Positions 30,540 through 64,000 of a stretch of DNA of 64,000 nt are shown here, piece after piece (position 1 is the first letter of the stretch; each line of letters starts with the position of its first letter). The DNA comes from Picochlorum sp. SENEW3 (taxonomy: Eukaryota). The DNA lies in NCBI GenBank assembly GCA_034226945.1, contig CP120453.1, positions 434,001 through 498,000 of the forward strand, in the 5' to 3' direction. Position numbers and translations under genes: made by a program. The notes beneath the pieces are model-generated. The model ran no database searches. It saw nothing but the letters and a program-made list of their open reading frames with translations, and was not told the DNA's origin.

Positions 30540-33005
30540 ATGTCTTCAACAAAGACTAGAATACCTCGTCCTGGGGTTTCTGTGGAGGGACATGCGTGTG
30601 ATAAAGAGAATGCCGGGGTGACAACGCTGCAGAAGACCAAGGGGTCAACAACACCTTCTCGCAACGTCTTGAGCGATTGTCGCAATACCGAGGTATCTGT
30701 CAGAAAGAATAAGAGAGGCAAGGGAGATGAGCAGGACGTATCACAGGAGCAACAGGAGAAGAAGGGTCGTTGGGAGGATGTTTCAGATTCTGACTCTGGC
30801 AAGATGCATGACGTACCCGAGGAGGAGCTGGTTATGTGGGCTGATGTGTTGAAAGAGACTGGTTGGGAGGAGAGAGACTGCCTGCTTCACAAGTTGAGTC
30901 TTCCAAAGCGAGGGGATCCGGCAAAGAAGGTGTCAACATTGGGGCAGCATGTGAAGAGGCTGCGGTCGCTTGGGTGGCATTTGTATGCTGACAGGAAGGA
31001 AGCGTTGATAGAGTGTAATGGGTTGCGAAAGAGCGAGACAGCGGCTCGAGGCGAGTTGGACAGTGTCAAGGAACACCTTGAGAGGGTGCAGTCAGAACTT
31101 GATGAAGAGGTGGCAGCATCACGGCGGGCTCTGTCCCAGCAGAAGGAAGAGATGAAGGCATTGACAGATAAAATCAATGAAATAGATGCCAAATTGAAGG
31201 AAGTGACGGAGGAGAGGAACAGTTTGGAGGATGAACTTGAGTCCTATCACATGACAAAAGCAAGCTTGGAAAAGAAGTTGCAGGATGCAGAAGCTGCTCA
31301 GCTGGAGAGCCAGAAGTATTCCATGAACCTTCAGGAATACAATTCAAAGCTTCAGGGGGAGGTACAGAGTCTGACTCAGCAGATGGATGATCTCAGGGAG
31401 GAGAAGGCCCGTTTGACTGAGGACAAGGCTAGCCTGACAGGGAGGGTACAAGCCCTTGGCGATGCTTTAGAAGCGTTACAAGCGTCTTCGTCGTCAACAG
31501 AAAAAGCACGAAAAGATGCCGTTGCAGAGCTGTCTAGGTTGCGAGGGGAGTTGGCATCTATTTCTGCTGAAAAGTCATCCCTGAGTGCAGAACTCTCCAC
31601 TCTGAAGGGTGTGTGCAACGAGCAAAGGTCTGATCTCGAACGATACAGGGCTGCGACAGGAAAGGATTTGGCTGCTCTGGAAGAAGAGAAGGCAAATAGT
31701 CACATGCTAACTCAGAGGACAAAGGCTCAGGCTGAGACGGTGGCAGCTCTCCAGGACCAATTGACAATGATGAAGGAACAGCGGACAGCTGCAGAAGCAC
31801 AGACTGAGAGATTCTCGGAAGAAAATAGGGGGCTGAAGGCAAAGATTGCCGAGTTTGAGGTGCTACTGCCGGCCATGGAGGAGCGATTGAGGGATTCTGA
31901 GGCAATCCGCAGAAGGTTACATAACACCGTGCTGGAGCTGAAAGGAAATGTGCGTGTATTCTGTCGGGTCAGGCCATTGTCACAAGAAGAAAAAGATACC
32001 AAAGAGGAAACTGCTTTGGTCCCTGTCTCGACAGGAGATCTCTCTGGAAGAGGACTGGAGTTGGAGAATGCCAATTCCAGCACAAAGCCTAGTGTCAGCA
32101 AAGACAATCAGCAACAGAAACATTTGTTCACATTTGATAGGACATTTGGACCGACCTCCACCCAAGAAGATGTATTTGAAGAAGTTTCCATGTTGGTACA
32201 AAGTGCTCTGGATGGGTACAGGGTCTGTATTTTTGCATATGGGCAAACTGGCTCTGGTAAAACACACACCATGCTCGGTAACCCAGACAATGAAGGTATC
32301 ATTCCAAGGAGTGTGCGCCAAATTTTCACCACTGCTGAAAAAGATTCCGAGCGTGGATGGAAGTATGTCATGAAAGCATCGATGCTTGAGATCTACAACG
32401 AAGAGATTAAGGATTTGCTTGGCCCTGGCCCACCAGAAGGCAAAAAGCACATCATTTCCAGCACAGATACTGGCGAAGCAGCAGGCGTCGAAGTCAGTTA
32501 TCTCGAATGGAAACAAGTGAGATGCTCAGATGATGTATCATCTCTGCTGAAGAGGGCTATGAAAGAAAGATCAGTGGGTGCAACAGCATGTAATGCTCAG
32601 TCTTCAAGATCCCACATGGTGTTCATGCTTGCAGTGGAAGGGACGAATGAGGCCACCGGCCAAAGACTCTCTGGTGCCCTCAATCTGGTTGATTTAGCTG
32701 GAAGTGAACGTGTGGGCAAGAGCGAGGTCACAGGCGACCGGTTGAAAGAGACCCAAGCCATCAACAAAAGCCTGTCTGCACTTGGGGACGTCATTTCTGC
32801 ATTGGGTACAAAAGAACATGTGCCGTACAGAAACTCCAAGCTCACGTTTTTGCTTCAAAACAGTTTGAGTGGATCTGGAAAGGCGCTCATGCTTTGCAAT
32901 GTTGGTCCATCATCATCAGCGTCCAACGAAACACTCTGCACGTTGAGGTTTGCATCAAAAGTCAATGTAACCAACATTGGAACAGCTCGCAGAAACATTC
33001 GGTAA
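30540..33005 (+). CDS. Kinesin-14 (Kar3/ATK/KIFC1-like), C-terminal motor
   Basis: Coiled-coil stalk, ELKGNVRVFCRVRP neck, GQTGSGKT, SSRSH, LVDLAGSER, HVPYRNSKLT. Confidence 0.95.
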   Translation: MSSTKTRIPRPGVSVEGHACDKENAGVTTLQKTKGSTTPSRNVLSDCRNTEVSVRKNKRGKGDEQDVSQEQQEKKGRWEDVSDSDSGKMHDVPEEELVMWADVLKETGWEERDCLLHKLSLPKRGDPAKKVSTLGQHVKRLRSLGWHLYADRKEALIECNGLRKSETAARGELDSVKEHLERVQSELDEEVAASRRALSQQKEEMKALTDKINEIDAKLKEVTEERNSLEDELESYHMTKASLEKKLQDAEAAQLESQKYSMNLQEYNSKLQGEVQSLTQQMDDLREEKARLTEDKASLTGRVQALGDALEALQASSSSTEKARKDAVAELSRLRGELASISAEKSSLSAELSTLKGVCNEQRSDLERYRAATGKDLAALEEEKANSHMLTQRTKAQAETVAALQDQLTMMKEQRTAAEAQTERFSEENRGLKAKIAEFEVLLPAMEERLRDSEAIRRRLHNTVLELKGNVRVFCRVRPLSQEEKDTKEETALVPVSTGDLSGRGLELENANSSTKPSVSKDNQQQKHLFTFDRTFGPTSTQEDVFEEVSMLVQSALDGYRVCIFAYGQTGSGKTHTMLGNPDNEGIIPRSVRQIFTTAEKDSERGWKYVMKASMLEIYNEEIKDLLGPGPPEGKKHIISSTDTGEAAGVEVSYLEWKQVRCSDDVSSLLKRAMKERSVGATACNAQSSRSHMVFMLAVEGTNEATGQRLSGALNLVDLAGSERVGKSEVTGDRLKETQAINKSLSALGDVISALGTKEHVPYRNSKLTFLLQNSLSGSGKALMLCNVGPSSSASNETLCTLRFASKVNVTNIGTARRNIR

Positions 33006-33046
33006 TTATACCTTTACATGTACACGTTAGACATATAGAAATATAA

Positions 33047-33703
33047 TTAATATCCAATGCTCTTCCATCCCTTCTTCTGCAACTCTTGTCGAAGGGCTTT
33101 GATTCTTTTGCGATTGATATCACCATCAGATTCACCTATCCTTGATGCCGACCTATATTCAACGATGCCTGACTTGTCTTTTGGGAAATATGCCTCAAAA
33201 TCATCAATAAATCCAAATGTAGGACTTTCGTACTCTACATGAAGATAATCATCTGTTCGTTCGACAATTTTTGGCGCGAATCCATCAGGACTTGTGTTCT
33301 CCACCACCTCAATAAGTTCATTCATAGCCTGCTCTTGTGTGGCAGGGTTCTTCCTTCCACGTCCTTCCTCTGGATTATATGTCCACTGTGGGACATAATG
33401 TGTCATATCATTTGCCTCCTCAGCCGTTGAAATGCAATTTGGCGATGCCGGGCAAAGCTGGAGGGATTTGAAACTTCCATAATCCTTGAGGCCAATGTTC
33501 TTGGGCGTCGGGGCTGCTCCCCAGGTAAACAAGGCTCCCAAAACAGCTACATTCACACTGTTCATCACCAATTCTCTTCGAGATGATTCCTTCTGTCCAT
33601 CGGAGGAAGAAGAGGAAGAGGTTCGAACCACAAACTTCCTGCCGCAAGCAGGCGCAGAGCTGCAAGGTCGCTGAAATCTAAGAGTAGCTCGATGCTGGAA
33701 CAT
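33047..33703 (-). CDS. DUF1499-family plastid protein
   Basis: LCPASPNCIST, FGFIDDFE, YRSASRIGESDGDINRKR; transit-like N-terminus. Confidence 0.8.
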   Translation of the reverse strand: MFQHRATLRFQRPCSSAPACGRKFVVRTSSSSSSDGQKESSRRELVMNSVNVAVLGALFTWGAAPTPKNIGLKDYGSFKSLQLCPASPNCISTAEEANDMTHYVPQWTYNPEEGRGRKNPATQEQAMNELIEVVENTSPDGFAPKIVERTDDYLHVEYESPTFGFIDDFEAYFPKDKSGIVEYRSASRIGESDGDINRKRIKALRQELQKKGWKSIGY

Positions 33704-33819: not shown

Positions 33820-34845
33820 ATGCATTTGTACGATGTATTGCGTGTAGCAACTGGATCTTCTCACAATGAAAATGAACGTGTCATGGAAGAACAGCAGACA
33901 GCAAGGAATGAGGATGACTTTGCCCGGTTGGCAACAGAGAAGTTGTTTCACTCGAAAAAAGTGAAACATCCTGGCCTGGCGTCGCACCGGCAGTATTATG
34001 AAGCGAAAAGCTCATGGAATAAATTTATTGGGGAAGATTTTGCATCTAGACGGCCAGCTGGCATGACTGGGTGGCAGACCCCTCCCGTGGAGTTTTTGCC
34101 GAAAAGTCATACCCGGCCGGGCCGTACGCAGACAAGCGCAGTCGCAAGATTATATGAATTGAAGATGCAACGTGTAAGCATGCAGCGGAACCTGGGGAGT
34201 CAGGAGGAGGAGCAGAATGACGTAGGCTCTGTGTCCAATATGAGCACAGGGACATTTTCTCGCCCTCCTAGTATACTGTCGGATGCTTCGACAAAAATAC
34301 TGGAGGGCCCAATAGCAAAGTCTGCGTGGAAGCCTTTACGGTCGAGTAAAGGGGTGGTGGGGAGGAAGGCCAAGGGCGTGGGCCTTCTTCATGTGGATGG
34401 AGATGCATCCGACTTTGTACCACTGCGGGATACATATGGGGAGCAGAAGCAGGAGCCTATGAATGACAGGAGTGATGAAACAGCTGCATTTAGATGTGCA
34501 GACGCAGGGGAGCTGAGAAGCCGTATGAAATCGGAGATGCATTTGTTCCCTGGCTTGGAAATGTTCCAAGATGCCCAGAGTGTCGCATTTCACTTTTCCA
34601 AAAGATTGAGCTCTCTGGAACGAACGGACGCATTTTCAAGACTCCATATGTTGGAAAAAGAAGCTAATAGTCGGCTTGCTGACGAGATGGTAGATGTAGA
34701 CGAGGGGGACATGAATAGAACGATATCGTATCCATTGAGCAGTGCCCCTTGTAGGTTGCGCCCTGAAGTCATAGAGCGCTTGGAAAGAATCAGAAAGTTA
34801 TCGGAGCACGCGGAAAAGTTGTATATGGTGGGAAATTGTACATAA
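33820..34845 (+). CDS. Hypothetical protein (341 aa)
   Basis: Long ORF filling the gap between flanking genes; no recognised domain. Confidence 0.55.
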   Translation: MHLYDVLRVATGSSHNENERVMEEQQTARNEDDFARLATEKLFHSKKVKHPGLASHRQYYEAKSSWNKFIGEDFASRRPAGMTGWQTPPVEFLPKSHTRPGRTQTSAVARLYELKMQRVSMQRNLGSQEEEQNDVGSVSNMSTGTFSRPPSILSDASTKILEGPIAKSAWKPLRSSKGVVGRKAKGVGLLHVDGDASDFVPLRDTYGEQKQEPMNDRSDETAAFRCADAGELRSRMKSEMHLFPGLEMFQDAQSVAFHFSKRLSSLERTDAFSRLHMLEKEANSRLADEMVDVDEGDMNRTISYPLSSAPCRLRPEVIERLERIRKLSEHAEKLYMVGNCT

Positions 34846-40848: not shown

Positions 40849-42105
40849 TTAATGAGATGTTTCCATAGCCTTGGCACCTTTGTCATGCCACTCATCAGCT
40901 TCGCTTGCAGAAGAGTTATCTGATCCACCTACACTTGGTAACAAGCAGACGTTTGACTTTTCTGTAATGACAACCTCTTCAAGTACCTCGTGATTCCTTT
41001 CAAGGAGTCCGGCAAGATCCTTGTAGGATGCCTGGCACAATGCCTTTCCAATTTCCTTGCCAGACTCATCGATGAAAGCGACAGCTTCTCCGGATTCAAA
41101 GTTTCCTTCGATCCCGTCAATGTGTGCAGCACTCACCGTGCCATCCTCCCTGAGTTCTTCCAAAGCTTCTGCAGAGACTTGCACAGTACCTCGGACGGGA
41201 TTCGAGAGGACCCATCTCTGCCCACCAACAACGGGCTCATTGGCTGGGAGGAACAAAGTACCAATCTCCTTTCTCTCCAAGACAACTTGCGGTACAACAT
41301 CTGGGTCAGCCTGGCATATTACCATTTTGGTGCCACCCGCAGTGGCCATGTTGGCTGCGGACAGCTTGGTACCCATGCCACCTGTACCCCACTCTGATCC
41401 GGCATCTGTGTCTCCTGGTGTCTCAGTTTTCACTTGCAATGATTGCACATCCTCGACAACCCTGATTGGTTCTGCTTTGGGATCCACGGATGGGTTTGCT
41501 GTATACAGAGCATCGACATCCGTGAGCAAGAACAACCAGTCTGCGTGCACCAGGGTGGCAACCTGGGCAGAAAGGGTGTCATTGTCCCCAATCTTGAGCT
41601 GCTCAATAGCAACTGTATCGTTCTCATTCACAACAGGCACAACTCCATACTCGAGCAGTTCCTGAAATGTATTGACAGCATTCGTATACTGTTGCTTATC
41701 AGACAAATTGTCCAATGTAAGCAACACCTGGGAGCATGTCAGACCGACAGCAGAAAACAAGTCCTCATAGAATCTCATGAGGTGAACTTGCCCAACTGCG
41801 GCCAGAGCCTGTCTCTTCGACAAGTCCTTGGGCTTTTTCTCAAGTCCAAGTCTCTGGCATCCGACACCGACAGCTCCGCTTGAAATCAAGATAACATGGC
41901 ATCCGTTGTCCTTTAGCGTTCTCACAGACTCTGCCAACCCCGCCAATGCACTGAGATTCAGAGAAGAGTACTCGCTGTTGATCAAGGAAGTCGTACCAAT
42001 CTTGATCACGACTACCTGCATGTTGTCATGCCTATCGCCAACGCGTTCGGGTTTTGGGGTGGAGGAATCAGCGCGCAGCTGCTTCAGTTCGTCAATATTC
42101 ATCAT
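40849..42105 (-). CDS. proB: Glutamate 5-kinase with C-terminal PUA domain
   Basis: VVIKIGT, SSGAVGVG, QALAAVGQ, NENDTVA, GDNDTLSA, GTGGMGTK. Confidence 0.93.
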   Translation of the reverse strand: MMNIDELKQLRADSSTPKPERVGDRHDNMQVVVIKIGTTSLINSEYSSLNLSALAGLAESVRTLKDNGCHVILISSGAVGVGCQRLGLEKKPKDLSKRQALAAVGQVHLMRFYEDLFSAVGLTCSQVLLTLDNLSDKQQYTNAVNTFQELLEYGVVPVVNENDTVAIEQLKIGDNDTLSAQVATLVHADWLFLLTDVDALYTANPSVDPKAEPIRVVEDVQSLQVKTETPGDTDAGSEWGTGGMGTKLSAANMATAGGTKMVICQADPDVVPQVVLERKEIGTLFLPANEPVVGGQRWVLSNPVRGTVQVSAEALEELREDGTVSAAHIDGIEGNFESGEAVAFIDESGKEIGKALCQASYKDLAGLLERNHEVLEEVVITEKSNVCLLPSVGGSDNSSASEADEWHDKGAKAMETSH

Positions 42106-42738
42106 CTCTTCGCAACCAAAATTGTTTGAAAAATGACACTCAAATGAACTCTTTATTCAGAGACAGACAAAAGCCTCTTAATTATTATAGAATCTGAAAT
42201 TATGGGTGCTTTAGTTAATGAACTCCTTGATTCATTCAACAAAGCAATATGTAGTTGATTATTCTGACCGTTTCACTCGAGCAATAGCCCTCTTGTGTTC
42301 ACCAGTGCAACAGTAGGTCCATAAATTTTCAACCCTAGCCGATACCTAAGTATTCTAATTTAGTGTAATAATAGTATTCTGCAATGTATATGACAGTATA
42401 GTGAGAAATTATGCCATGCATGCATGCGTGGTACAAAAACTGCCTCCAGAACAGAAAGGACAATGCCTTCCCATCATGGCAGGCCTTCGACCGTCAGATT
42501 GAGCCAACTCACGTGGCGACGTACCTCGATATTACCATCGAATACTGACACGATATTTGCTACGAATACCACTTCAGTAATAATAACGAATGAAATTCAA
42601 ACGAGATTCGGAGCCGTTGGTACAAAAGGCTTTCAGCACACCAACAGACGTCGCTCGTTGTTTCGTCAAATCAAGCCACACACAGACAATACTACGCTGT
42701 CTGTCGTGAATATAAATATATTAAATCTAGGAATGAGT

Positions 42739-43348
42739 TCAATAGAATTTTTTAATTATCACAATGGTGAAACAGTAATGGTTTCGAGATTTATCCTCTG
42801 ATAACGTGGCGCGTTCAAACAGGACCACCGTGTCCGTTTTGGAGGCCGTCGGTCAGACAATTGTCGGACCGTTGGTCTGACGACTTCCTTTTTCGTTGGA
42901 GGTGGAGTCCGTAATCCTTGTCCCCCCACCGCAGAGTCTACGATGTCGAAAAAACCGTGAATTTTAGGTATATCTACATATCTAACATGCTTCGGAGCGC
43001 TGAAAACGTTTCCGGGAGGGTGGATCCGATGATTGTAACCGTACACGTGCGTGTCAAGGGTACCCTGGATGCTTCATCTTCTTCTGGCTGCCGTGCTCCA
43101 TCTGCTGCATCAAATGAGCTACGTTTCAAATGGTTCAAGGCTTCATACATCTGTTCATGCGTTAGAGATGTTGTCACCGCAGCTATATGGCCAATTCCTG
43201 CCGCTGCTGCTGCATGAATGCCATGGATGGAATCCTCAATCACGATAGCATCCTGTCCACAGCCTTGGCAGTCTAGAATGCTCAGTGCCTCGACATAGAC
43301 ATCAGGGTGAGGTTTTCCACGTGCTACTTGCTGAGCGCTGACAATACT
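42739..43348. repeat. Direct duplicate of 45574-46195 (3' end and downstream region of the DSP-HAD gene)
   Basis: Near-identical over ~610 nt; this copy is 12 nt shorter at ~43060 (offset changes from 2835 to 2847). Confidence 0.97.
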
Positions 43349-45444: not shown

Positions 45445-45453
45445 TGGATCAGT

Positions 45454-45568
45454 GTGTCATTGTCCCCAATCTTGAGCTACTCAATGGCAACTGTATCGTT
45501 CCCCTTCACAACAGGCACAACTCCATACTCGAGCAGTTCCTGAAATGTCTTGACAGCATTCGCATACT
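45454..45568 (-). pseudogene. 115-nt duplicated internal fragment of proB (copy of 41576-41690)
   Basis: Colinear, ungapped, about 6 mismatches counted by eye. Confidence 0.95.
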
Positions 45569-45808
45569 ATAGATCAATAGAATTTTTTAATTATCACAAT
45601 GGTGAAACAGTAATGGTTTCGAGATTTATCCTCTGATAACGTGGCGCGTTCAAACAGGACCACCGTGTCCGTTTTGGAGGCCGTCGGTCAGACAATTGTC
45701 GGACCGTTGGTCTGACGACTTCCTTTTTCGTTGGAGGTGGAGTCCGTAATCCTTGTCCCCCCACCGCAGAGTCTACGATGTCGAAAAAACCGTGAATTTT
45801 AGGTATAT

Positions 45809-47787
45809 CTACATATCTAACATGCTTCGGAGCGCTGAAAACGTTTCCGGGAGGGTGGATCCGATGATTGTAACCGTACACGTGCGTGTCAAGAGCACCC
45901 TGTTTGGGTCCCTGGATGCTTCATCTTCTTCTGGCTGCCGTGCTCCATCTGCTGCATCAAATGAGCTACGTTTCAAATGGTTCAAGGCTTCATACATCTG
46001 TTCATGCGTCAGAGATGTTGTCACCGCAGCTATATGGCCAATTCCTGCCGCTGCTGCTGCATGAATGCCATGGATGGAATCCTCAATCACGATAGCATCC
46101 TGTCCACAGCCTTGGCAGTCTAGAATGCTCAGTGCCTCGACATAGACATCAGGGTGAGGTTTTCCACGTGCTACTTGCTGAGCGCTGACAATACTTTGGG
46201 GTTCTATGATGCCCCATATCTTGGCAGATTCTAGATTGTGCCGGATTTTTGCATGGCTTCCAGAAGAGGCGATGCCAACGAGGGGCAATGCATGGTCAGG
46301 TCGACGGCAAGCCCGGCATGCATCTTTCATCAGAGATGCTGCACCTGATATAGGATCTATTCCGGAGGATGTGATGGACGTGTAGCATTGGGTTTTTGCA
46401 GCAGATACCATGTCTACAAGGTGCTCCATCCACTGTGTTTCATCCCCAACATCTTCCACCAGGGCTACACGCTTGAACATATCTTCCAGGTTATAGGTTC
46501 TCATATAGTATTCCAAGCAAGATCGAATATCCATACCAAACACGGGAACGAAATCCTGAGGAAATATGTGAGGAATGTCAAAGGATGTCACTTGTTGTAT
46601 ACCTTGTCTCAAAGCTTCACAACTCGCCCTCTCAGAATCGACCAGTACTCCATCGCAATCAAATATAAGACAAATCTGTTTCGCACGGGTCGCTTTCTTT
46701 CCCAGAAGTTTTGGCTGCCTAATGGCAGGCATGGAGACATGGTGGCTTCTTTGCATGTCATTAATATCGAGCTTTGACATGTGTAGCTGAAAAGCTGGGG
46801 TTATCCACTCGGCATCTTCATTTTGCATACCAGACCAATTGTAGCTTCCTAGCCTGGATGAGCATTGATAGCAATAAATCTTACCTTGGGTATCCTCTGT
46901 GATGGCCTTCATCCACCGAAGAGGTTCAACAAAAATGCTCCCTGTGGTAGATTCCCCATGTGAGTCGGCCTGCCTACTGTTTTTATAGTCTTTTGATTTC
47001 TTCTTCCAAGAAAATCCATTCTTACAGGATCCCACAGACACGTCCACCATGATATTTGCTGCTGTTGCCAACACAGCTCTACAACTTCTACAACTGTACA
47101 GAATAGAACTCCGCGACGTATCATTGCGTGGATCTCGAAACTCCTTAACATTGAATGCATCTCCTTGGCTTTGGACATTTTTTGCAGTTTGCCTCGCTCT
47201 CAGGGACCTGTATGCACTATGCGTCATCTCATATGAAAACTTCATCTCATGCCACACATCCAACTGATTCAGAAAACCTTGGTTTGGCGAGGCCTGTGGG
47301 TATATACGATGTAAATCCTCAAGGCACTGCGACGATGTGGCATCTCTGTTCACATACTCCATCATGTATGCCAATACCAGTGTGCAACTTCTTGAGACAC
47401 CTTGTGCACAAACAACCACCACATGCCCTCCTTGTTTTACTGCATTGTGTATGAATCGCGACGATTCTTCAAAGTACTCTATAACCAAAGACTCGTCGTC
47501 ATCTTCGATTTCAATATGCATGCGATGGTCTTCAGCAAAATCGTCGTATCTGCAGGCACGAGGGACTGGGCCCTGAACTGCCACCTGCACAGTGACATGT
47601 TTGCCGTAATTCATACTCAGGCCAATGCATTGTGCACATGGTAATGTAAAAATGACTTGATCACAGAAAGACGTACAAGTATGTGAGTAAAATGGCCTTT
47701 TTCCAAAGCACGCTCTAAAGCTGGGTTCGACGACCCACTAATGGAAACACCATCCAGTACTCGATCAACCTCAAATTCATCAGCCAT
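45809..47787 (-). CDS. DUSP12/Yvh1-like dual-specificity phosphatase with Zn-binding domain, fused to a HAD (CbbY/BPGM-like) hydrolase; exons 47787-47677, 47584-45809
   Basis: CAQGVSRS, SPNQGFLNQL, YSCRSCR..LA, FVEPLRWM, GKIYC..C..RLGSYNWSG, WITPAFQ; then FDCDGVLVDSE, ASS, GKPHPDVY, IEDS..G in the same ORF. Confidence 0.85.
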
Positions 47788-55754: not shown

Positions 55755-56430
55755 ATGACGCCGCCGCCTCAACTGCCGAGTGTGTTGGTCATTGTCGGTC
55801 CCTCTGGCGTTGGGAAGGGTACCCTGGTGGACAAGCTATTGGAGGGAAATGGGGATAAATACGGATTTTCATGTAGTCATACGACTCGAAAGCCACGCGA
55901 GGGCGAGCAGGTTGGTTGAGCGGTGCTTTTGTCGTCCTGGAACATGAGTTTGAAAAGGTGTTGTGTCTCACATCCAGTATGTCTTGCAGGATGGCGTTCA
56001 TTATCACTTCACATCCAAGGAGGACTTTGAGCGTGGTATTGAAGAAGGAAAGTTCATAGAGTATGCCCATGTGCATAATAATATATACGGAACATCGTTT
56101 GATGCAGTCAAAGCTGTGCAACAGTCTGGGAAATGCTGCATACTGGATATTGATGTGCAAGGTGCTCGGCAGGTGCGCGCCTCGGACCTGTCAGCTATAG
56201 TGGTATTTATTGCACCCCCTTCCTTGGAAGAATTGGAGAAGCGTTTGCGTGGAAGAGGTACCGAGTCTGAAGAGCAGATTCAAGTGAGGTCGACACAGGC
56301 CAAGGTGGAGATGGATTCATTACAAGAAAAGGGGCTCTATGATGCTGTGATTGTGAATGATGCTGTGGATGATTGCTTTGAAAAATTGAAAGATATAGCC
56401 GAGATTGCATTGAATGGAGGCCACCAGTAA
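55755..56430 (+). CDS. Guanylate kinase; exons 55755-55910, 55990-56430
   Basis: [45 protein letters not shown]. Confidence 0.95.
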
Positions 56431-56784
56431 ATATCTGTTTCCACCCATCATCTCTTTCTTTCTTTTATTTTACCCGTGTGCCTCATTATTTAATAATAAT
56501 ACATTATTATTCCTGTGGTAATCATGAGGATTACAACTACACCCACCCAGTACCGCGCCGCGTCAGATTCGCCCAAAATCAAATTTCCACTCTCGCAGAC
56601 ATTTAGACATGAGCAAATTCACCCAAAATCTCAAATATTCGCAGATTTAGGATCAGTACAGCAATAAAATATATGATTGATCATGGTTCAATCCGTTAAT
56701 ATACAATATTACAATCAAAACATCGACATATATATGATGCATCATGGCATATGCCCGCATGGAGTGGAAAGAGAAGAAGAGATC

Positions 56785-59700
56785 TCATTCTGTCCAACCA
56801 CATCGCCTCTTGAATTCTGTTCTGCCTTCCGCACTCAAACCCATGTCATCCATGAGTTCCTCCATTTCTTCATTTGTTCTTTTTCCATGCTTGTATTGTT
56901 CTATCTCATAGATAAGCCACTTCCCTAGACCGAACTTCCGTGGTCCATTCCCATCGTTGAGATCATATTCAGCATTCCTTTCTGCCTCGGTTTGTTGGGG
57001 GGTTTCGCTGAAATCGACATCATTCTGATGCAGTCTCCTGCGCTCCCTGAGAGCTTGACGCTTCTCTTCGCGAACCTTGGAATTCACACCCCGTGTCCAA
57101 GTGCGAGATGAATACAAATCCCGAAGCACATACCTGCTTCCCTCTCCAATATGAGAGAACTCTTTTCTGATGACTTCTCTTCGCTTTTTCTTGTCGTACA
57201 TATGTGCCACATCGACAAATCGTGAGGAATCATCCAATTCTGACAAACCCAGCGTTTTCTTGATTCCTACAAGCATCCTTTCATTTCCCCAGTATGCCTG
57301 CTCATGAATCTCGCCAGTACCTTTGTCTTCAAATGTTCCCAAGAACCAGATGACGTTAGTTGGGAAAAATCGATCCTCATCAGCATTATCTTTTTGATCA
57401 TCCACATCTTGTATGACAATCTTGTCCTGTAGGCGTTTTGGGATTCGCCTCTTTGTTATCCATACTCGCCTGACCGTCTCTGGAGAAGGAATCTGCTCTT
57501 TTGGAAATTCCATCTCTCGCATTGTATTCACGATTTTTCCACCGAGTTCTCTAGTACTCTCTCCAGTGACAGTCTCTTCCTTGCCATTATTGGAAATGAT
57601 TGCTCTTCTTCGTTTCCCACGAGATAGGGCAGTATTCTCCCCATTGGTTACCACTCGAAGATTGTCTGATCGATTCAAACCAGTTTGGCCATTGATATGA
57701 TCGACATTTAGCTTCTCTATGGCACCGTCATCTCGCCTCCAGACAGTCTTGATCTGAACCCCATCTTCATCTGTGCGCCTGGCAATGTCTTCAAGTTGAA
57801 ACTTGTGGAGGAATTTTTTAGAGAGCTCGCGTTTCCCAAGTACTGCAGCGCACAACTTTGTGAATGCTATGGCACATGAAATATATATACTTTCTCCCGC
57901 AATGCGCATCCCTCTGTACCTATTCCTTTGTATAATGTCCATGACATCAGCCAGGAAATACCACCCATCACCATACTTCCTCCAGATGCATTGTTCCTCC
58001 TCAAAGAAAAGGACATTTGTGCATCTCACAACGTCAACCCACTTTTCAGATAAATTCGGATCATCTAATTTCCAGTTGTCTCCATCTTTTTCTAGGCGCA
58101 CCATTGGCAAACCAGTCTCCCCGAAACTGTCCTTGCATCTCTGAGCAATGGCCTTCCTCTCGTTAGACAGATGCTTGAATTGAGTGTAGCAAACCTCCAG
58201 ACTTTGCCCTCTAAAAGTCTCCCGAGAGCGTGGTCGTTTATTATTCGCCTGTTGCTTTGCATCAGCAATCCTCAAAAGGGAAGGTTGATTATAGGATGCT
58301 TGGATGGTGAGGTGGTCGGTACTCATCCCTGGCCCACATTTCTTAAGGAATTGAGATGGAGTCCACCCATATTTTGCCATGCCTACCACTTGATGTATTT
58401 TGAACAGCTTGCGTACTTTTTTTTTTTTGGATTTAGCAGCGATAAAAAATTTCGGGCGCAATTGCCCGGTGACGGGAATTCCCAAAGAGTCACCTTGTGA
58501 ATTGATGCACCGGCCCTCAGTAGACACAAACACGTGGGAATCATCTCCAATTGGCACACTACCGAAAAAAAAGTCTTGATGGAGCGTATAGCGCCATTGG
58601 ACACCACCATCTGTCGTATATTGCCTAGGCAAGAGCACATGACTAGCATACGTCCCCGTAGCGTTCAACTGTCGGGAGAACTTGATTGCCTCTGGAAATA
58701 CTAGCACTCCGAGCAACCTTTCTGTACTCATCTTCAGCCCCTCTTTAACAAATTCATACAGATGAATACTTTCGGGAAAGATGTGTTCATACTTTGACGG
58801 AATGACTTCATTCTCCTCGAAGTGGCGGATTCTCCATCCAGGGCCAATATGGGGTTGCAAAAAATCTTCCATGCACTGTGTGAAAGATTGCCTAATGTCT
58901 TCCAATGTCTTTTGCTCACTGCCTACCTTTTGCTCGATTGCTCTCTCAAGTGCATCGTAGAGCCCCTCGACGCCGTTTTCATACTCTGAAGCAAGTAGAG
59001 CAATCAAAGCCATTGAAAATTCCTGCAACTCGTCATCCAGACAAATCTCCTTTGTGATTTTGACCACCTCTGGAATGCCTTTCGAATCCACATATTCTTG
59101 ATTTTGGAGATATCCCTTTTGAAGTTTGTAATGCTCCATCAAAGGGATTTTGATGGCTTCATCAGCTGAAGCAAATATCTCATCTGACGCATCACTGGCT
59201 GAAATGACGGTATTCACATCAACCAGTCTCTGGACTGCAGCGCTTTGTCTCATCTTCCTCGAACATGCGATGAGACGGTCTTTAAAATTGTCTATTTTCC
59301 CAGAGCAGGTACGCCTAATAAAGTCTGATAAATAATCGAGATCATTCAGACCTTTCTCGATGATGCTTCTGTTTTCGCTATTTAATGTGCATAAATATGC
59401 CTCTTGAATGGATGCTGCTGTGTTTCCCTCTGATGATGGGTGAATATCCTTACTACCAGATGCCGAATCAGAGCCGACTACATCTACAACAGCATCAATA
59501 GTATGTGAATGAATGTGCCAAGAGAGATACACATCTCAATGTATGTACCGAAAACATACATCATAACAACAACATACCTTGTTCTCTATTGCCCCTACAG
59601 CCAAGGACAGGAGCTGTCTCCTTCTTCTTGGGCTTGGCAGATGGCTTCCTTTTCAATGGTCGCTGAGATGAATTCTCCTGTCGATTTGCTGAGGCCATTT

Positions 59701-60093
59701 GTGACCCAGCGTTCTGCACGATATTCTCCTCATCCAAATCTGAAGGCTGGGAGTCTGGAATCACAGTGGACCACGCGGGTGCCTCCTGTAAAGGTGCCTT
59801 CCTTTTCCTTGTCATATGGCCATGCTGCACATCACATATTTGATCGATCAGGCACATGTGTTCTACACAATGCAACATTTGCAAGAATCATCACAAGCAA
59901 TGAAACGCACCTTTTGCACTGCTGCTTTTGTCCCATTTGTACCAGACCTGTGTGCATCTACAGCTGCTGTAGACGCCCGCTTAACATTCCGGCTACGCCT
60001 GACATCCCTAACCCTCTTACCCTCCACAGTCCTGGGATTCAAAGGCTGGTTGGTAGCCTTTAGCTTGGCAGGTGGCTTCCTTTTCCTTGTCAT
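56785..60093 (-). CDS. Large (~1042 aa) NUMOD4/tandem-HNH endonuclease-like protein; predicted exons 60093-59911, 59824-59578, 59483-56785
   Basis: VDHINGQTGLNRSDNLRVVTNGEN (HNH_3-like); second degenerate IHQVV..TDHL..N..LR.AD..QQ..NK; VSTEGRCIN (NUMOD4-like); exon phases 0 and 1 give 3129 nt in frame. Confidence 0.7.
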
Positions 60094-60515
60094 GTGGATA
60101 GGCTGCACATCACATATTTGATTGATTATACATTATATATCTATATATGTTTTGCAACACAAGCAATCAAACGCACCTTTTCTCCACGATGTCTCTGGGC
60201 ACTATTGCAGTAGCACTATTTGAGCTTCCCAAGCATGCAATGCTGTTTGTACAGTACAATTCTCTATTACTGCACATATACACATATTCGGCGTGATACA
60301 ATTGAAAGATAGGTGCTTTTTAGACATGATCAAGAAAACAAGACAGTTTCGCGACGTAGCAATTCAACCATGACTCACCTGCTTATCCGTTCACCCTCAG
60401 GGTGATTGCAAACATAAAATAATACTAAATACATCCAATTTGACTGCGCAATACCCGCTGTAGCGATACTATACAAAATATCGCGATTGCGTCATCGCAG
60501 ATCTAAACCTAAATA

Positions 60516-60802
60516 GTAACCGGCAAGTAACCGGCAAGTAACCGGCAAGTATCCAGCAAGTAACCGGCAAGTAACCGGCAAGTATCCAGCAAGTAACCGG
60601 CAAGTAACCGGCAAGTATCCAGCAAGTAACCGGCAAGTAACCGGCAAGTATCCAGCAAGTAACCGGCAAGTAGCCGGCAAGTATCCAGCAAGTAACCGGC
60701 AAGTAGCCGGCAAGTATCCAGCAAGTAACCGGCAAGTAACCGGCAAGTATCCGGCAAGTAACCGGCAAGTAGCCGGCAAGTATCCGGCAAGTATCCCTGC
60801 AA
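60516..60802. repeat. Tandem 11-bp minisatellite GTA(A/T/G)CC(G/A)GCAA, 25 full copies plus one degenerate copy, with 33-bp higher-order period
   Basis: Directly read: A,(AAB)x4,(ACB)x2,AAD,ACD with A=GTAACCGGCAA, B=GTATCCAGCAA, C=GTAGCCGGCAA, D=GTATCCGGCAA. Confidence 0.98.
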
Positions 60803-61196
60803 ACTGCGTTGACTCGATGTCCAATAAAGGTGCCACCCATCCTCCAATATTTTCGGAAATAAAAACATGTTCAAAATCTCCTGTATATAATCGCGATGCC
60901 AAAGGCAACATTTTCGCCTTTTTCATCCTTCAGCGATGTGCCCAACGTGACCAGATATCGTCGAGCGAAGTGGAAGCCTTTCCGAGTCCATGTTACGCAT
61001 GTTTCCGGCCATAACAATATCTCCAAATTCACAAACACGGTCCACAATGCTACAAACCATGACATACAGAAGCAGACTCGTTGCGACCATGACATCGACG
61101 TGAATGTCACAGCCTACCCTCTTGGCCGAGAACGATCGAGTCAGTTTTGATATCATATCAACACATGCATCTCATAGTGAAGATTCGAGCGCATAT

Positions 61197-61272
61197 GGGG
61201 CTTTCTGACACTCTTTGCTGACGACAAATGTGACATCTCTCCTCGCTGCAGAATAGAGTGTCAGAAAGCCCC
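61197..61272. repeat. Perfect 18-bp inverted repeat with 40-nt spacer
   Basis: GGGGCTTTCTGACACTCT (61197-61214) / AGAGTGTCAGAAAGCCCC (61255-61272). Confidence 0.95.
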
Positions 61273-61489
61273 GCGAATTCTGATGCTTTTCCCCGCTCTC
61301 CCCGTTAAGTTTGTATTTTATTCTTTACAGAATTGAATGGAATAGCAAGGGATCGTGGGAAAAGACAAGAATGCATGAGATTTCTCACTCGGATGATGAT
61401 TATCACTACCATCTTGCAAGATTCTTGATCAAGAATGGTCATGACCAATTGATCAAGATCCATCATGACCATGATGGGTTTTCTCTCTC

Positions 61490-62551
61490 TCAGGGATCTT
61501 GGGACTTCTGGAGGTTCAGATCTGTAGTATCGAATCTATACAGCCCTGTTTCATCGGTTCTGAAATGTGGTGCATCCCCAAAATCTAGAGCATCAACATC
61601 TTGTGGCAAATCCACCACATCCTCCCAAAAAATATCATCATTATTACCCTCCATACGAGTAGGTACTCTCGTGTCGTGAGTAGGATCTGAATCTGTAGGA
61701 GGTGCATTCGCTCTGGTATCCACCGGTTGACTGTTGCCTTTGCATGGTGGATTTGTATTATCATCTATCTCCCTGACAGGCTCCTCCATCTTTGATCTCT
61801 TATCATTTGATTCCTCGATTGTTGGATCTTCAATCACACTAGAAGCTGTTAAAAGATCATACTGTGCATTTCTTGCCTCCTTTAGTTTCTCACATTTAAG
61901 TTCTTTGCCACTACGGATAGTCCTCAACATCTCTTGCAGCCCATCACTCCAGTGATACACCTTCCTGAGAGGTTCCCCTCTAGAGCTTGTATGGCGTTGG
62001 ATCGAGGCCATCAGCAGGACAAGGAGGCATACCCGTCGCAGCCTTTGACTTGGGCCTGTGGTACTGAGACATCTTTGCAGACACATGAGTGCGTTTGTAG
62101 CTTTCGCATTGTTTGCAAAATCTTCCCTCATCTCCTTGATGAGGCGACTCTTATGAATCGCATAAAGTATGACTGTGTCGCAGTTCTTCTGTGTCTTGGG
62201 CCTGTCTGCACAGATGTCGAGATCTGGACTCTCCTTTGCGACCGATCCGATGAATACTTGATTGACCCCTTGCACTGAGACTGGGACTGGACATTCAATT
62301 TTAAATGCCATATGTGGCGGAGTAGTCGTGCCTTTCTGAAATTGCCTCATATCCACGAGATTCTCGAAGTCATGCCCACACATAATTCGAATCTCATTCG
62401 GTTGCATGGAGGAATTCTCAGAAGATCTGTTGTCACAGATCTTCCCCCTCACATGTTCATCAAACTCACCGCAACATATCTTATCGTAAAGATCATCAGT
62501 AGCCCAAGCGTTTTCACTGTTTGAAGACTGATGCATGTCGATTTCAAGCAA
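61490..62551 (-). CDS. Orphan hypothetical protein (~350 aa; start uncertain)
   Basis: Uninterrupted ORF with an acidic low-complexity tail; no recognised domain. Confidence 0.55.
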   Translation of the reverse strand: MLEIDMHQSSNSENAWATDDLYDKICCGEFDEHVRGKICDNRSSENSSMQPNEIRIMCGHDFENLVDMRQFQKGTTTPPHMAFKIECPVPVSVQGVNQVFIGSVAKESPDLDICADRPKTQKNCDTVILYAIHKSRLIKEMREDFANNAKATNALMCLQRCLSTTGPSQRLRRVCLLVLLMASIQRHTSSRGEPLRKVYHWSDGLQEMLRTIRSGKELKCEKLKEARNAQYDLLTASSVIEDPTIEESNDKRSKMEEPVREIDDNTNPPCKGNSQPVDTRANAPPTDSDPTHDTRVPTRMEGNNDDIFWEDVVDLPQDVDALDFGDAPHFRTDETGLYRFDTTDLNLQKSQDP

Positions 62552-63405
62552 TCAGTGGCTTTGTGCTGGCTCGATACCAAACTTGCTCGTGCGTGTGAAC
62601 GAGTATACACTGCATTGGATACATGTTTAATTATCAACATAATATATTATTCAAAAGCAAAAGAATACTCTGTGAATAATGCATCATTTCCCAGCTTGTG
62701 GGAAGTTTCGCGAGAACCAGAGAGGTGCGTACCAGACTATCCTTATGGAAGCAGCAGTTGATTGTGATTGATATCTTCTATACATATAATTTTAAAGGGT
62801 ATTATTGCCTCTATGAAATGATTGATAGTATTATAGTAAAATAAAACACAAACCATCTTCTGGAGTGGATGATGGTGTAATAGATGCTCGTGTTGATTTG
62901 CTGCATGAATGTCATGCAAGGTGTCGGCCTTTGTTCAGAAGGACACATTATTCGGGAATCGATCAAATAGCATGGACAAGACTACAATACCACGCAGTAT
63001 GCGTGCCTCCAATTCATATATTAAACAATAATTCTCTCAAAATAGTAACTGTTTATCGTCATCTCCTTTCTTCTCGTCGAGAGTAGCAGAGGAGCATATC
63101 GAGAGCAGAATATTCAAACCCAGCGGAAGTCAACCTTCAACCGAAACTCATGTACGTGCGATCATATGTCATTAGTATCACATACATATGACATATTGGT
63201 GTATATATTTCGCTAGAATCTGTTTTATCACTACAAACGGTTTCAGCCGTACCGAACTGCGAGCGACATCTTGATCAGACTGAATTCTATCACAACCGTT
63301 CCGCGGCGTATTCCATCTGATTTCTGATAATTTACATGTATAATATTCTCAATATGTAGAGGAATATCAAGAAAGATTGATTGCAACACGTGCTACTCCT
63401 CCTTT

Positions 63406-63927
63406 TCATACTATATACCTCAGGAACATGTCATTCTGATGAATAGCTTCTGTAATGAGCGATTGCTCTCCTTCACTCCCGTATATAGTACCGCGAGAAA
63501 GAAGGGATGCATGCCGCTCTGACAACTTGCCAAGGTTTCTCTTCCACCGATTGTTTTCAAAGGATGCAATGAATGCATACTGCATCATTGCATGCGTAAT
63601 ACGCCCCAACGCCATACGCTCTTCTTCTTCTTCTCTCTGTATAGGTGTTTCATGTCGACTGTCTGAGGCGTGTTGTTGCGCATCCTTGTTGTTGTCACTG
63701 CCGTGTTGGTCTTCTTCTTCTTCTTCTTCTTCTAGTCCTGCGTCGTGGTGGTGGCGCTGTCGTTCGTGGCTGTCGTCCTCATTGCTAGGTATTGTTGGAT
63801 TTTCTTTTGCAAACGTCACTAAATGCTTCTTTTCTTCGTCTTCTGATGCCATGTATCCATGTAATAATGAAATCTCTTGCGCTACTAGTGATTCATGGAA
63901 TTCAAAGTTCGAATTCGAATGGCACAA
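63406..63927 (-). pseudogene. N-terminal fragment resembling carnosine N-methyltransferase (N2227-like); catalytic domain not found downstream
   Basis: EEERMALGRITHAMMQY..ENNRWKRNLGKLSERHASLL..AIHQNDMFLRYIV; no RDWS/VPGAGLGRL exon seen in 62550-63400. Confidence 0.5.
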
Positions 63928-64000
63928 ATACTCCCTCTGGGTACTGTTTCTACAATGTATATTATTTGCAATACTAATGATGATGCCGATATTGATTGTA

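Follow-up and report, generated by a model that had tools for sequence, protein, structure and literature searches.

A lineage-specific hairpin locus with evidence of transcription between two tandem genes of Picochlorum sp. SENEW3

Genomic setting

The stretch of DNA that was analysed, in the following referred to as the window, comprises 64 kb of the genome of Picochlorum sp. SENEW3. Its long open reading frames (ORFs) encode a kinesin, Ctf4/Mcl1, NOB1, an RPE65-type oxygenase, FtsH, a hydroxyproline arabinosyltransferase and similar proteins, and the presence of the kinesin, Ctf4/Mcl1, NOB1 and the like identifies the window as eukaryotic nuclear DNA. According to PMC11092101, the SENEW3 genome measures 13.75 Mb, has a G+C content of 46.3% and a low heterozygosity, and consists for 4.99% of transposable elements, with DNA transposons at 0.35%. 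The hairpin under study spans 76 bases and lies within a spacer of 1055 nt that separates two tandem minus-strand genes. The features of the locus, in the order in which they are met along the minus strand, are:

61490-62536, minus strand: orphan ORF, the upstream gene (348 aa; stop codon UGA)
61325-61329, minus strand: UGUAA, which probably serves the orphan gene as poly(A) signal (161 nt past the stop codon)
61255-61272, no strand: right arm of the inverted repeat (18 bp, perfect; exact reverse complement of the left arm)
61215-61254, no strand: interior of the hairpin (40 nt), an imperfect palindrome in its own right
61197-61214, no strand: left arm of the inverted repeat (18 bp, perfect), with the sequence GGGGCTTTCTGACACTCT
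60515-60793, no strand: tandem array with an 11-nt unit (AGTAACCGGCA; 25 copies) and a 33-nt higher-order unit (at 97%), situated past the hairpin and ahead of the HNH gene's ATG
56788-60434, minus strand: HNH-domain gene, the downstream gene, annotated as a 1094-aa hypothetical protein (PSENEW3_00002397)

The order on the minus strand thus runs from the orphan stop codon (61492-61490) through UGUAA (61329-61325), the hairpin (61272-61197), about 400 nt of spacer and the array (60793-60515) to the ATG of the HNH gene (60434), which confirms the location between the orphan ORF and the array that had been given in the initial annotation. The array ends 81 nt upstream of the annotated ATG, and the ATG itself is found 763 nt downstream of the hairpin.

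The protein encoded by the orphan ORF was not connected to any Pfam family in a profile search and has one homologue, which shares 74% identity and is likewise 348 aa long; the protein atlas gave no usable match, and the pLDDT of the Atlas model was 0.32. The ORF ends in UGA, and a selenocysteine insertion element (SECIS) was considered and rejected: no Rfam SECIS match was obtained between 56000 and 64000 at E-values up to 1. The HNH gene, for which a protein search recovered the annotated record at 100% identity, is made up of five coding pieces, with four introns in the coding part, from 60434 down to 56788. The sole Pfam domain in its 1094-aa protein is a borderline HNH_3 domain (24.6 bits versus a cut-off of 24.8), a RuvC or TnpB-like domain was not found by Pfam, and the nearest feature clusters in the atlas score 0.76-0.78. 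The protein looks like a relative of the homing-type endonucleases. The HNH gene also contains an internal duplication (59792-59915 versus 60070-60181; 74%) that covers an intron end and an exon start, and both copies encode a basic stretch HMTRKRK..., preceded by ...TGTGATGTGCAG.

Structure of the hairpin and its rarity against chance

The two perfect arms of 18 bp around a 40-nt spacer, as well as the imperfect pairing within that spacer, were both part of the initial annotation: the former can be read directly at 61197-61214 and 61255-61272, and the latter was reproduced in the minimum free energy (MFE) fold. In a repeat search the arms could be extended to 24 nt at 92% complementarity. The inner pairing of TGCTGACGA with TCGCTGCA involves positions 61215-61218 with 61248-61251, 61220 with 61246 and 61222-61224 with 61243-61245. 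The interior contributes some 14 pairs, arranged as 4+1+3 in the fold of the window sequence and as 4+3+2+5 if position 61227 is a G, and it further includes a 3-nt bulge (61252-61254) and a 3-nt apical loop (61231-61233) in the folds. With the G at 61227, as found in other strains, the complete fold consists of 18+4+3+2+5 pairs and a 3-nt loop. The interior is therefore a decayed palindrome and not a loop. The uninterrupted part of the stem together with the 4 bp that follow the 3-nt bulge amounts to 22 bp, and below the arms the stem was not found to extend by more than 3 bp.

The RNA of a 91-nt stretch around the repeat has an MFE of -42.1 kcal/mol on the plus strand and -46.2 kcal/mol on the minus strand (z-scores of -7.0 and -7.2, respectively), and none of 200 shuffles was as stable. 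When folded as DNA, the hairpin reaches -25 kcal/mol (z = -6.75). Among 4261 sliding windows of 90 nt, the hairpin ranks first in stability on the minus strand and second on the plus strand. Nine perfect inverted repeats with a stem of at least 10 bp and a loop of at most 100 nt occur in the window, of which the 18-bp hairpin is the longest, the next having 13 bp. Stems in 100 simulations of the window under a first-order Markov model peaked at 15 bp, and none reached 18 bp. Sequences that match the arm with three mismatches or fewer are present at only two places in the 64 kb, and two such matches were recovered in none of 100 shuffles. Extrapolated arithmetically to the complete genome of 13.75 Mb (PMC11092101), about 0.02 such repeats would be expected by chance. 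The hairpin is real and not a product of chance, in agreement with what had been supposed from its length in the initial annotation.

A probable poly(A) signal ahead of the hairpin

UGUAA is the poly(A) signal of the chlorophytes, trebouxiophytes included, and peaks at position -17 from the cleavage site (PMC1868727). The motif at 61329-61325 is the sole minus-strand TGTAA between 59132 and 63331 in the motif list, and the hairpin starts 53 nt past its last base. In the window as a whole, 14 of the 34 long ORFs have a TGTAA on the same strand within 200 nt after the stop codon, as compared to 15% of random positions. Cleavage of the orphan mRNA is thus predicted near 61312, which would place its end some 40 nt short of the hairpin. 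On the plus strand no TGTAA is found past the hairpin until position 62876, and because both neighbouring genes also lie on the minus strand, the minus-strand RNA is the likelier carrier of the hairpin. Two tandem 24-nt units of small palindromes (TTGATCAA, TCATGA) at 61425-61471 fall within what is predicted to be the orphan gene's 3' UTR.

A strong fold behind the poly(A) signal is not a general rule in the window, as only one of the 18 ORFs with a nearby TGTAA is followed within the next 130 nt by a fold below -32 kcal/mol; the folds at the other 17 candidate 3' ends range from -9 to -31.7 kcal/mol. A genome-wide habit of placing hairpins after poly(A) signals was rejected on these grounds. 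A bicistronic transcript of the orphan and HNH genes was also set aside, since the spacer of 1055 nt contrasts with the spacing of green-algal polycistronic gene pairs, which are described in PMC7896298 as lying much closer together than monocistronic ones.

RNA evidence across the hairpin

Sequencing runs that hold part of the region 59000-64000 were recovered in 20 rows from 10 studies, mostly of marine, gut or culture samples. Four of the 24 runs listed (X2, X15, X17 and X20) were compared, all in the form of assembled contigs, which carry neither strand information nor true ends. A contig of run X17 joins 60269 to 60379 and 60097 to 60177, and these joints match two introns of the HNH gene exactly (GTGAGT...TGCAG and GTGCGT...TGCAG, minus strand), with five diverged exon letters counted as lying in between at the second joint. 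Run X17 therefore contains spliced RNA. The spliced contig extends into the tandem array, up to 60544, and further contigs of this run (60745-61068, 61039-61226, 61197-61330 and 61301-61612) extend over the hairpin and across the predicted cleavage site. In X20, a metatranscriptome by its record, one contig of 224 nt (61074-61297) runs across the hairpin. Contigs end near 61297-61303. The hairpin is thus present in the RNA-derived assemblies of two studies, in which carry-over of DNA is possible and the contigs do not give the strand. In X17 the contig depth is 76-90 in the bins over the hairpin versus about 25 in those over the introns, a measure that cannot rank the parts of one locus.

Variation between strains

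The X20 contig that spans the hairpin differs from the window at six positions (61168, 61174, 61175, 61183, 61227 and 61254), all of which are outside the arms, and its left arm is identical; that none of six differences falls within 36 arm nucleotides out of 224 has a probability of about 37% by chance. Among the differences listed for the four runs between 61142 and 61303 there are 11 sites, none of them in an arm, although this invariance of the arms is established for X20 only, as the differences of the diverged contigs of X2 and X15 could be placed only in part. Five of the listed differences are inside the hairpin, all in its interior (61217, 61218, 61227, 61253 and 61254). The diverged contigs show 12 differences in 96 nt for X2, and 15 in 162 nt and 17 in 152 nt for X15 (some 10%). 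Two X15 contigs align over 61142-61348 only and are then unlike the window on both sides. This may be a weak hint that the block 61142-61348 is better kept than its surroundings; alternatively, the X15 contigs may represent other copies.

The strains that were compared are closely related. For the haplotypes observed, the folds on the plus and minus strands amount to, respectively: -42.1 and -46.2 kcal/mol for the window; -46.6 and -48.8 for haplotype H1 (61227G, 61254C); -44.5 and -47.8 for H2, which in addition has 61217A, 61218T and 61253G; and -38.5 and -45.2 for H2b, which is H2 with an A at 61227. Haplotypes with 61227G are as stable as the window sequence or more so. With G in place of A at 61227, an A·C mismatch becomes a G-C pair in the plus-strand fold and U·G becomes C-G in the minus-strand fold, and the changes at 61217 and 61218 each preserve a pair on one strand only. 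In a control, pairs of random transitions in the interior equalled the stability of H1 in 5% of cases and that of H2 in 14-29%, a marginal outcome. The initial annotation had named a lack of transcription, of other copies and of compensatory changes in relatives as what would together refute its interpretation. This combination does not apply, since the contigs of two RNA libraries span the hairpin; a second copy was not found in the sequences searched (see below), nor a compensatory double change among the haplotypes observed.

Several variants occur elsewhere in the locus. In X17 the segment 61414-61452 has been swapped for three letters (a replacement of 39 nt). At 60485, contigs of X20 and X15 depart from the window sequence, one of those of X15 continuing directly at 60857, from which it follows that the tandem array differs between strains. 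Within the orphan ORF, contigs of X15 and X17 diverge from the window at 61727-61730, with the X17 contig continuing for 583 unlike letters, and X17 and X20 are without cover over 61919-62929, which includes most of the ORF. The structure of the orphan gene may vary among strains.

Possible origin and function

The hairpin is a one-off inverted duplication with perfect outer arms of 18 bp and the interior of a decayed palindrome, which is present in RNA-derived contigs. Our preferred reading, held tentatively and with a confidence well short of even, is that this inverted duplication was born locally, is transcribed from the minus strand and acts in cis, either as a barrier to read-through in the 3' flank or as an entry site for RNase III. 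An RNA polymerase II that transcribes the orphan gene would pass UGUAA at 61329-61325, with cleavage expected near 61312, and would reach the repeat some 40 nt further on, at which point the nascent minus-strand RNA could form a stem-loop of about 32 bp (-46 kcal/mol). On read-through RNA, such a stem-loop might cause the polymerase to pause or might offer an entry site to an enzyme of the RNase III type. Pausing or cleavage would lead to less read-through into the downstream HNH gene, and ribosomes would have difficulty in scanning a long leader that retained the hairpin. The repeat itself could have arisen by local template-switch or fold-back copying in a repeat-prone spacer, rather than by transposition. 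The X17 contig that covers 61197-61330 crosses the predicted cleavage site, so that RNA (or contaminating DNA) continues past it, and this counts against a role as a barrier in cis.

The hairpin could instead be a neutral by-product, i.e. a young inverted duplication in a repeat-prone spacer, produced by a template switch or fold-back at replication or repair, that would lack any function and be included passively in read-through or leader RNA. We consider this possible though somewhat unlikely, and a neutral palindrome accounts for the same facts and fits them almost as well as a barrier in cis does. It is in line with the unstable repeats in which the spacer is rich (the 11-nt array at 60515-60793 and the 24-nt palindromic units at 61425-61471), with the strain-specific break points at 60485, 60974, 61142 and 61727-61730, with the absence of compensatory change among the observed haplotypes and the marginal outcome of the stability controls, and with the lack of both an RNA family match and a general hairpin rule (one of 18); identical arms weigh little in strains as close as those compared. 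It agrees less well with the uneven decay of the repeat, in which 18 of 18 outer pairs are perfect and about a third of the interior is unpaired (at the inner mismatch rate the expectation would be about 0.7^18 = 0.002), with the alignment of the block 61142-61348 in contigs that have diverged by some 10% and whose flanks do not align, and with the streamlining of a 13.75-Mb genome (PMC11092101), which leaves less space for idle sequence. The other proposal on origin, put forward in the initial annotation, was a remnant of a miniature inverted-repeat transposable element (MITE) of which the arms would be the terminal inverted repeats. This proposal now appears improbable. Like a MITE, the locus has perfect terminal inverted repeats (18 of 18 bp) that flank a short, non-coding and less symmetric interior; the X2 and X15 versions of the block, which are diverged and have unlike flanks, could be further copies and would then speak for mobility, or they may be orthologues; and the 8-nt flanks agree at 5 of 8 positions. 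Against this, the flanks GCGCATAT and GCGAATTC show no clean target-site duplication, with agreement at 0 of 2, 0 of 3 and 5 of 8 positions, the last of which is weak after several lengths had been tried. A second copy of the hairpin was not found in the 64-kb window, either with up to three mismatches in the arm or by self-BLAST of 59001-64000 and of the whole window. In the JGI metagenome contigs, eight loci match the 18-mer of the arm, each with a single arm and none with a second copy; BLAST of these loci against the window returned only a seed of 20-26 nt for three and nothing for the other five, and their sequences identify the matches as chance. IMG/VR gave no arm matches among its viral contigs. 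The depth of X2 shows no excess over the hairpin bins, in contrast to those of the array, and the diverged contigs can equally be orthologues from other strains, as the same runs differ from the window elsewhere. Moreover, 76 bp is very short for a MITE, and the genome is one with only 0.35% DNA transposons (PMC11092101).

Another possibility is a small-RNA precursor (miRNA-like or a hairpin siRNA) from which a Dicer-like cut would release one duplex of about 21 nt. We regard it as doubtful. The shape of the stem is compatible with this suggestion of the initial annotation, as 22 bp suffice for one duplex; contigs of two RNA libraries span the hairpin; and the precursors of Chlamydomonas miRNAs are often near-perfect hairpins. 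These share with the present locus a transcribed, near-perfect stem that is sufficient for a duplex of some 21 nt, in a non-coding RNA beside a gene. Unlike them, the Picochlorum stem is short (about 22 bp to the first larger interruption), its lower part extends by no more than 3 bp, it belongs to no Rfam family, and it is known here from sequence and contigs. In an Rfam search of 56000-64000 with E-values up to 1, the sole match across these 8 kb was indeed a miRNA model (mir-3167; E = 0.0036), yet its score of 33.8 bits is far under the gathering score of 86, which denies membership; tRNA and tmRNA genes were absent. Target-like complements of all 21-mers of the hairpin were no more frequent in the window than by chance (five matches, each at 4 mismatches in 21 nt), the hairpin shows no visible descent from, or targeting of, a neighbouring gene at the level of sequence, and our literature searches returned no paper on miRNAs or RNAi in Picochlorum. 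A long shot would be the combination of both activities in one element: a substrate of RNase III or Dicer about 40 nt past the poly(A) site, of which the cleavage would end read-through into the HNH-endonuclease-like gene and at the same time free a miRNA-like RNA. Least probable, to a degree that makes it remote, is an element that acts at the level of the DNA, as a palindromic binding site or a cruciform recognised or nicked by a protein (perhaps the HNH protein), or that serves as the RNA partner of that nuclease. The repeat is symmetric and stable as single-stranded DNA (-25 kcal/mol; z = -6.75), and an HNH_3-type gene lies 763 nt away. Proximity is all that ties the two together, however: a 40-nt imperfect spacer disfavours the extrusion of a cruciform, the borderline HNH_3 match is of the homing-endonuclease type and not RNA-guided, and the feature clusters at 0.76-0.78 are leads at most. 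The partnership with a nuclease that the initial annotation had suggested is not borne out, as the neighbour is an ordinary intron-bearing gene in which nothing points to RNA guidance; as to guide RNAs of the IscB/TnpB/Fanzor type, the locus offers only the borderline domain, no RuvC or TnpB-like domain, and a hairpin that is separated from the ATG by 763 nt with the array in between.

The preferred reading, a locally born barrier to read-through or RNase III entry site, has parallels in the Rnt1 (RNase III)-dependent fail-safe terminators of budding yeast and in the 'hairpin rule' for transcript 3' ends of Mimivirus. What they share with the locus is a compact genome in which a strong stem-loop comes right after a 3'-end signal and is followed by a tandem gene. 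In Picochlorum, by contrast, the hairpin is specific to one gene (1 of 18), an RNA contig bridges the predicted cleavage site, and the element is known here from sequence. As to its origin, template-switch (quasi-palindrome) mutations create or perfect inverted repeats, and their products resemble the locus in being perfect inverted repeats at a single site in repeat-prone DNA, without the hallmarks of a transposon; this comparison bears on the origin of the hairpin only. Altogether, the hairpin represents a known general kind of locus, is specific to its lineage and shows evidence of transcription.

Picochlorum is a fast-growing alga with a genome of 13.75 Mb that is under development for biotechnology, and how compact genomes avoid interference between tandem genes, or whether small-RNA pathways persist in them, is little documented. 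If the hairpin is processed or stops read-through, it would be a convenient natural part for insulation or termination and would open a first way to study RNase III or Dicer activity within the genus. Should the combined reading hold, with cleavage by RNase III or Dicer both ending read-through and freeing a small RNA, Picochlorum would gain its first described small-RNA locus, and the hairpin would exemplify hairpin-coupled termination in a streamlined green alga; as a neutral palindrome it would be ordinary.

Other repeats and folds in the window

Various other repeats and palindromes were encountered. A local segmental duplication consists of 625 nt at 97.4% (42736-43348 and 45571-46195) and of 118 nt at 94% (41573-41690 and 45451-45568), and it places the same 36-nt palindrome (AGGCCGTCGGTCAGACAATTG...) in two spacers that are 2.8 kb apart. 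An AT-rich imperfect palindrome (33003-33049; arms of 19 nt, 79%) occupies the 41 nt that separate two convergent ORFs and holds a minus-strand TGTAA, so that the 3' ends of the two convergent genes may overlap. The second strongest 90-nt fold of the window (34036-34140; -41.6 kcal/mol on the plus and -44.9 kcal/mol on the minus strand) is located within the ORF 33820-34845, where the G+C fraction is 0.60-0.64.
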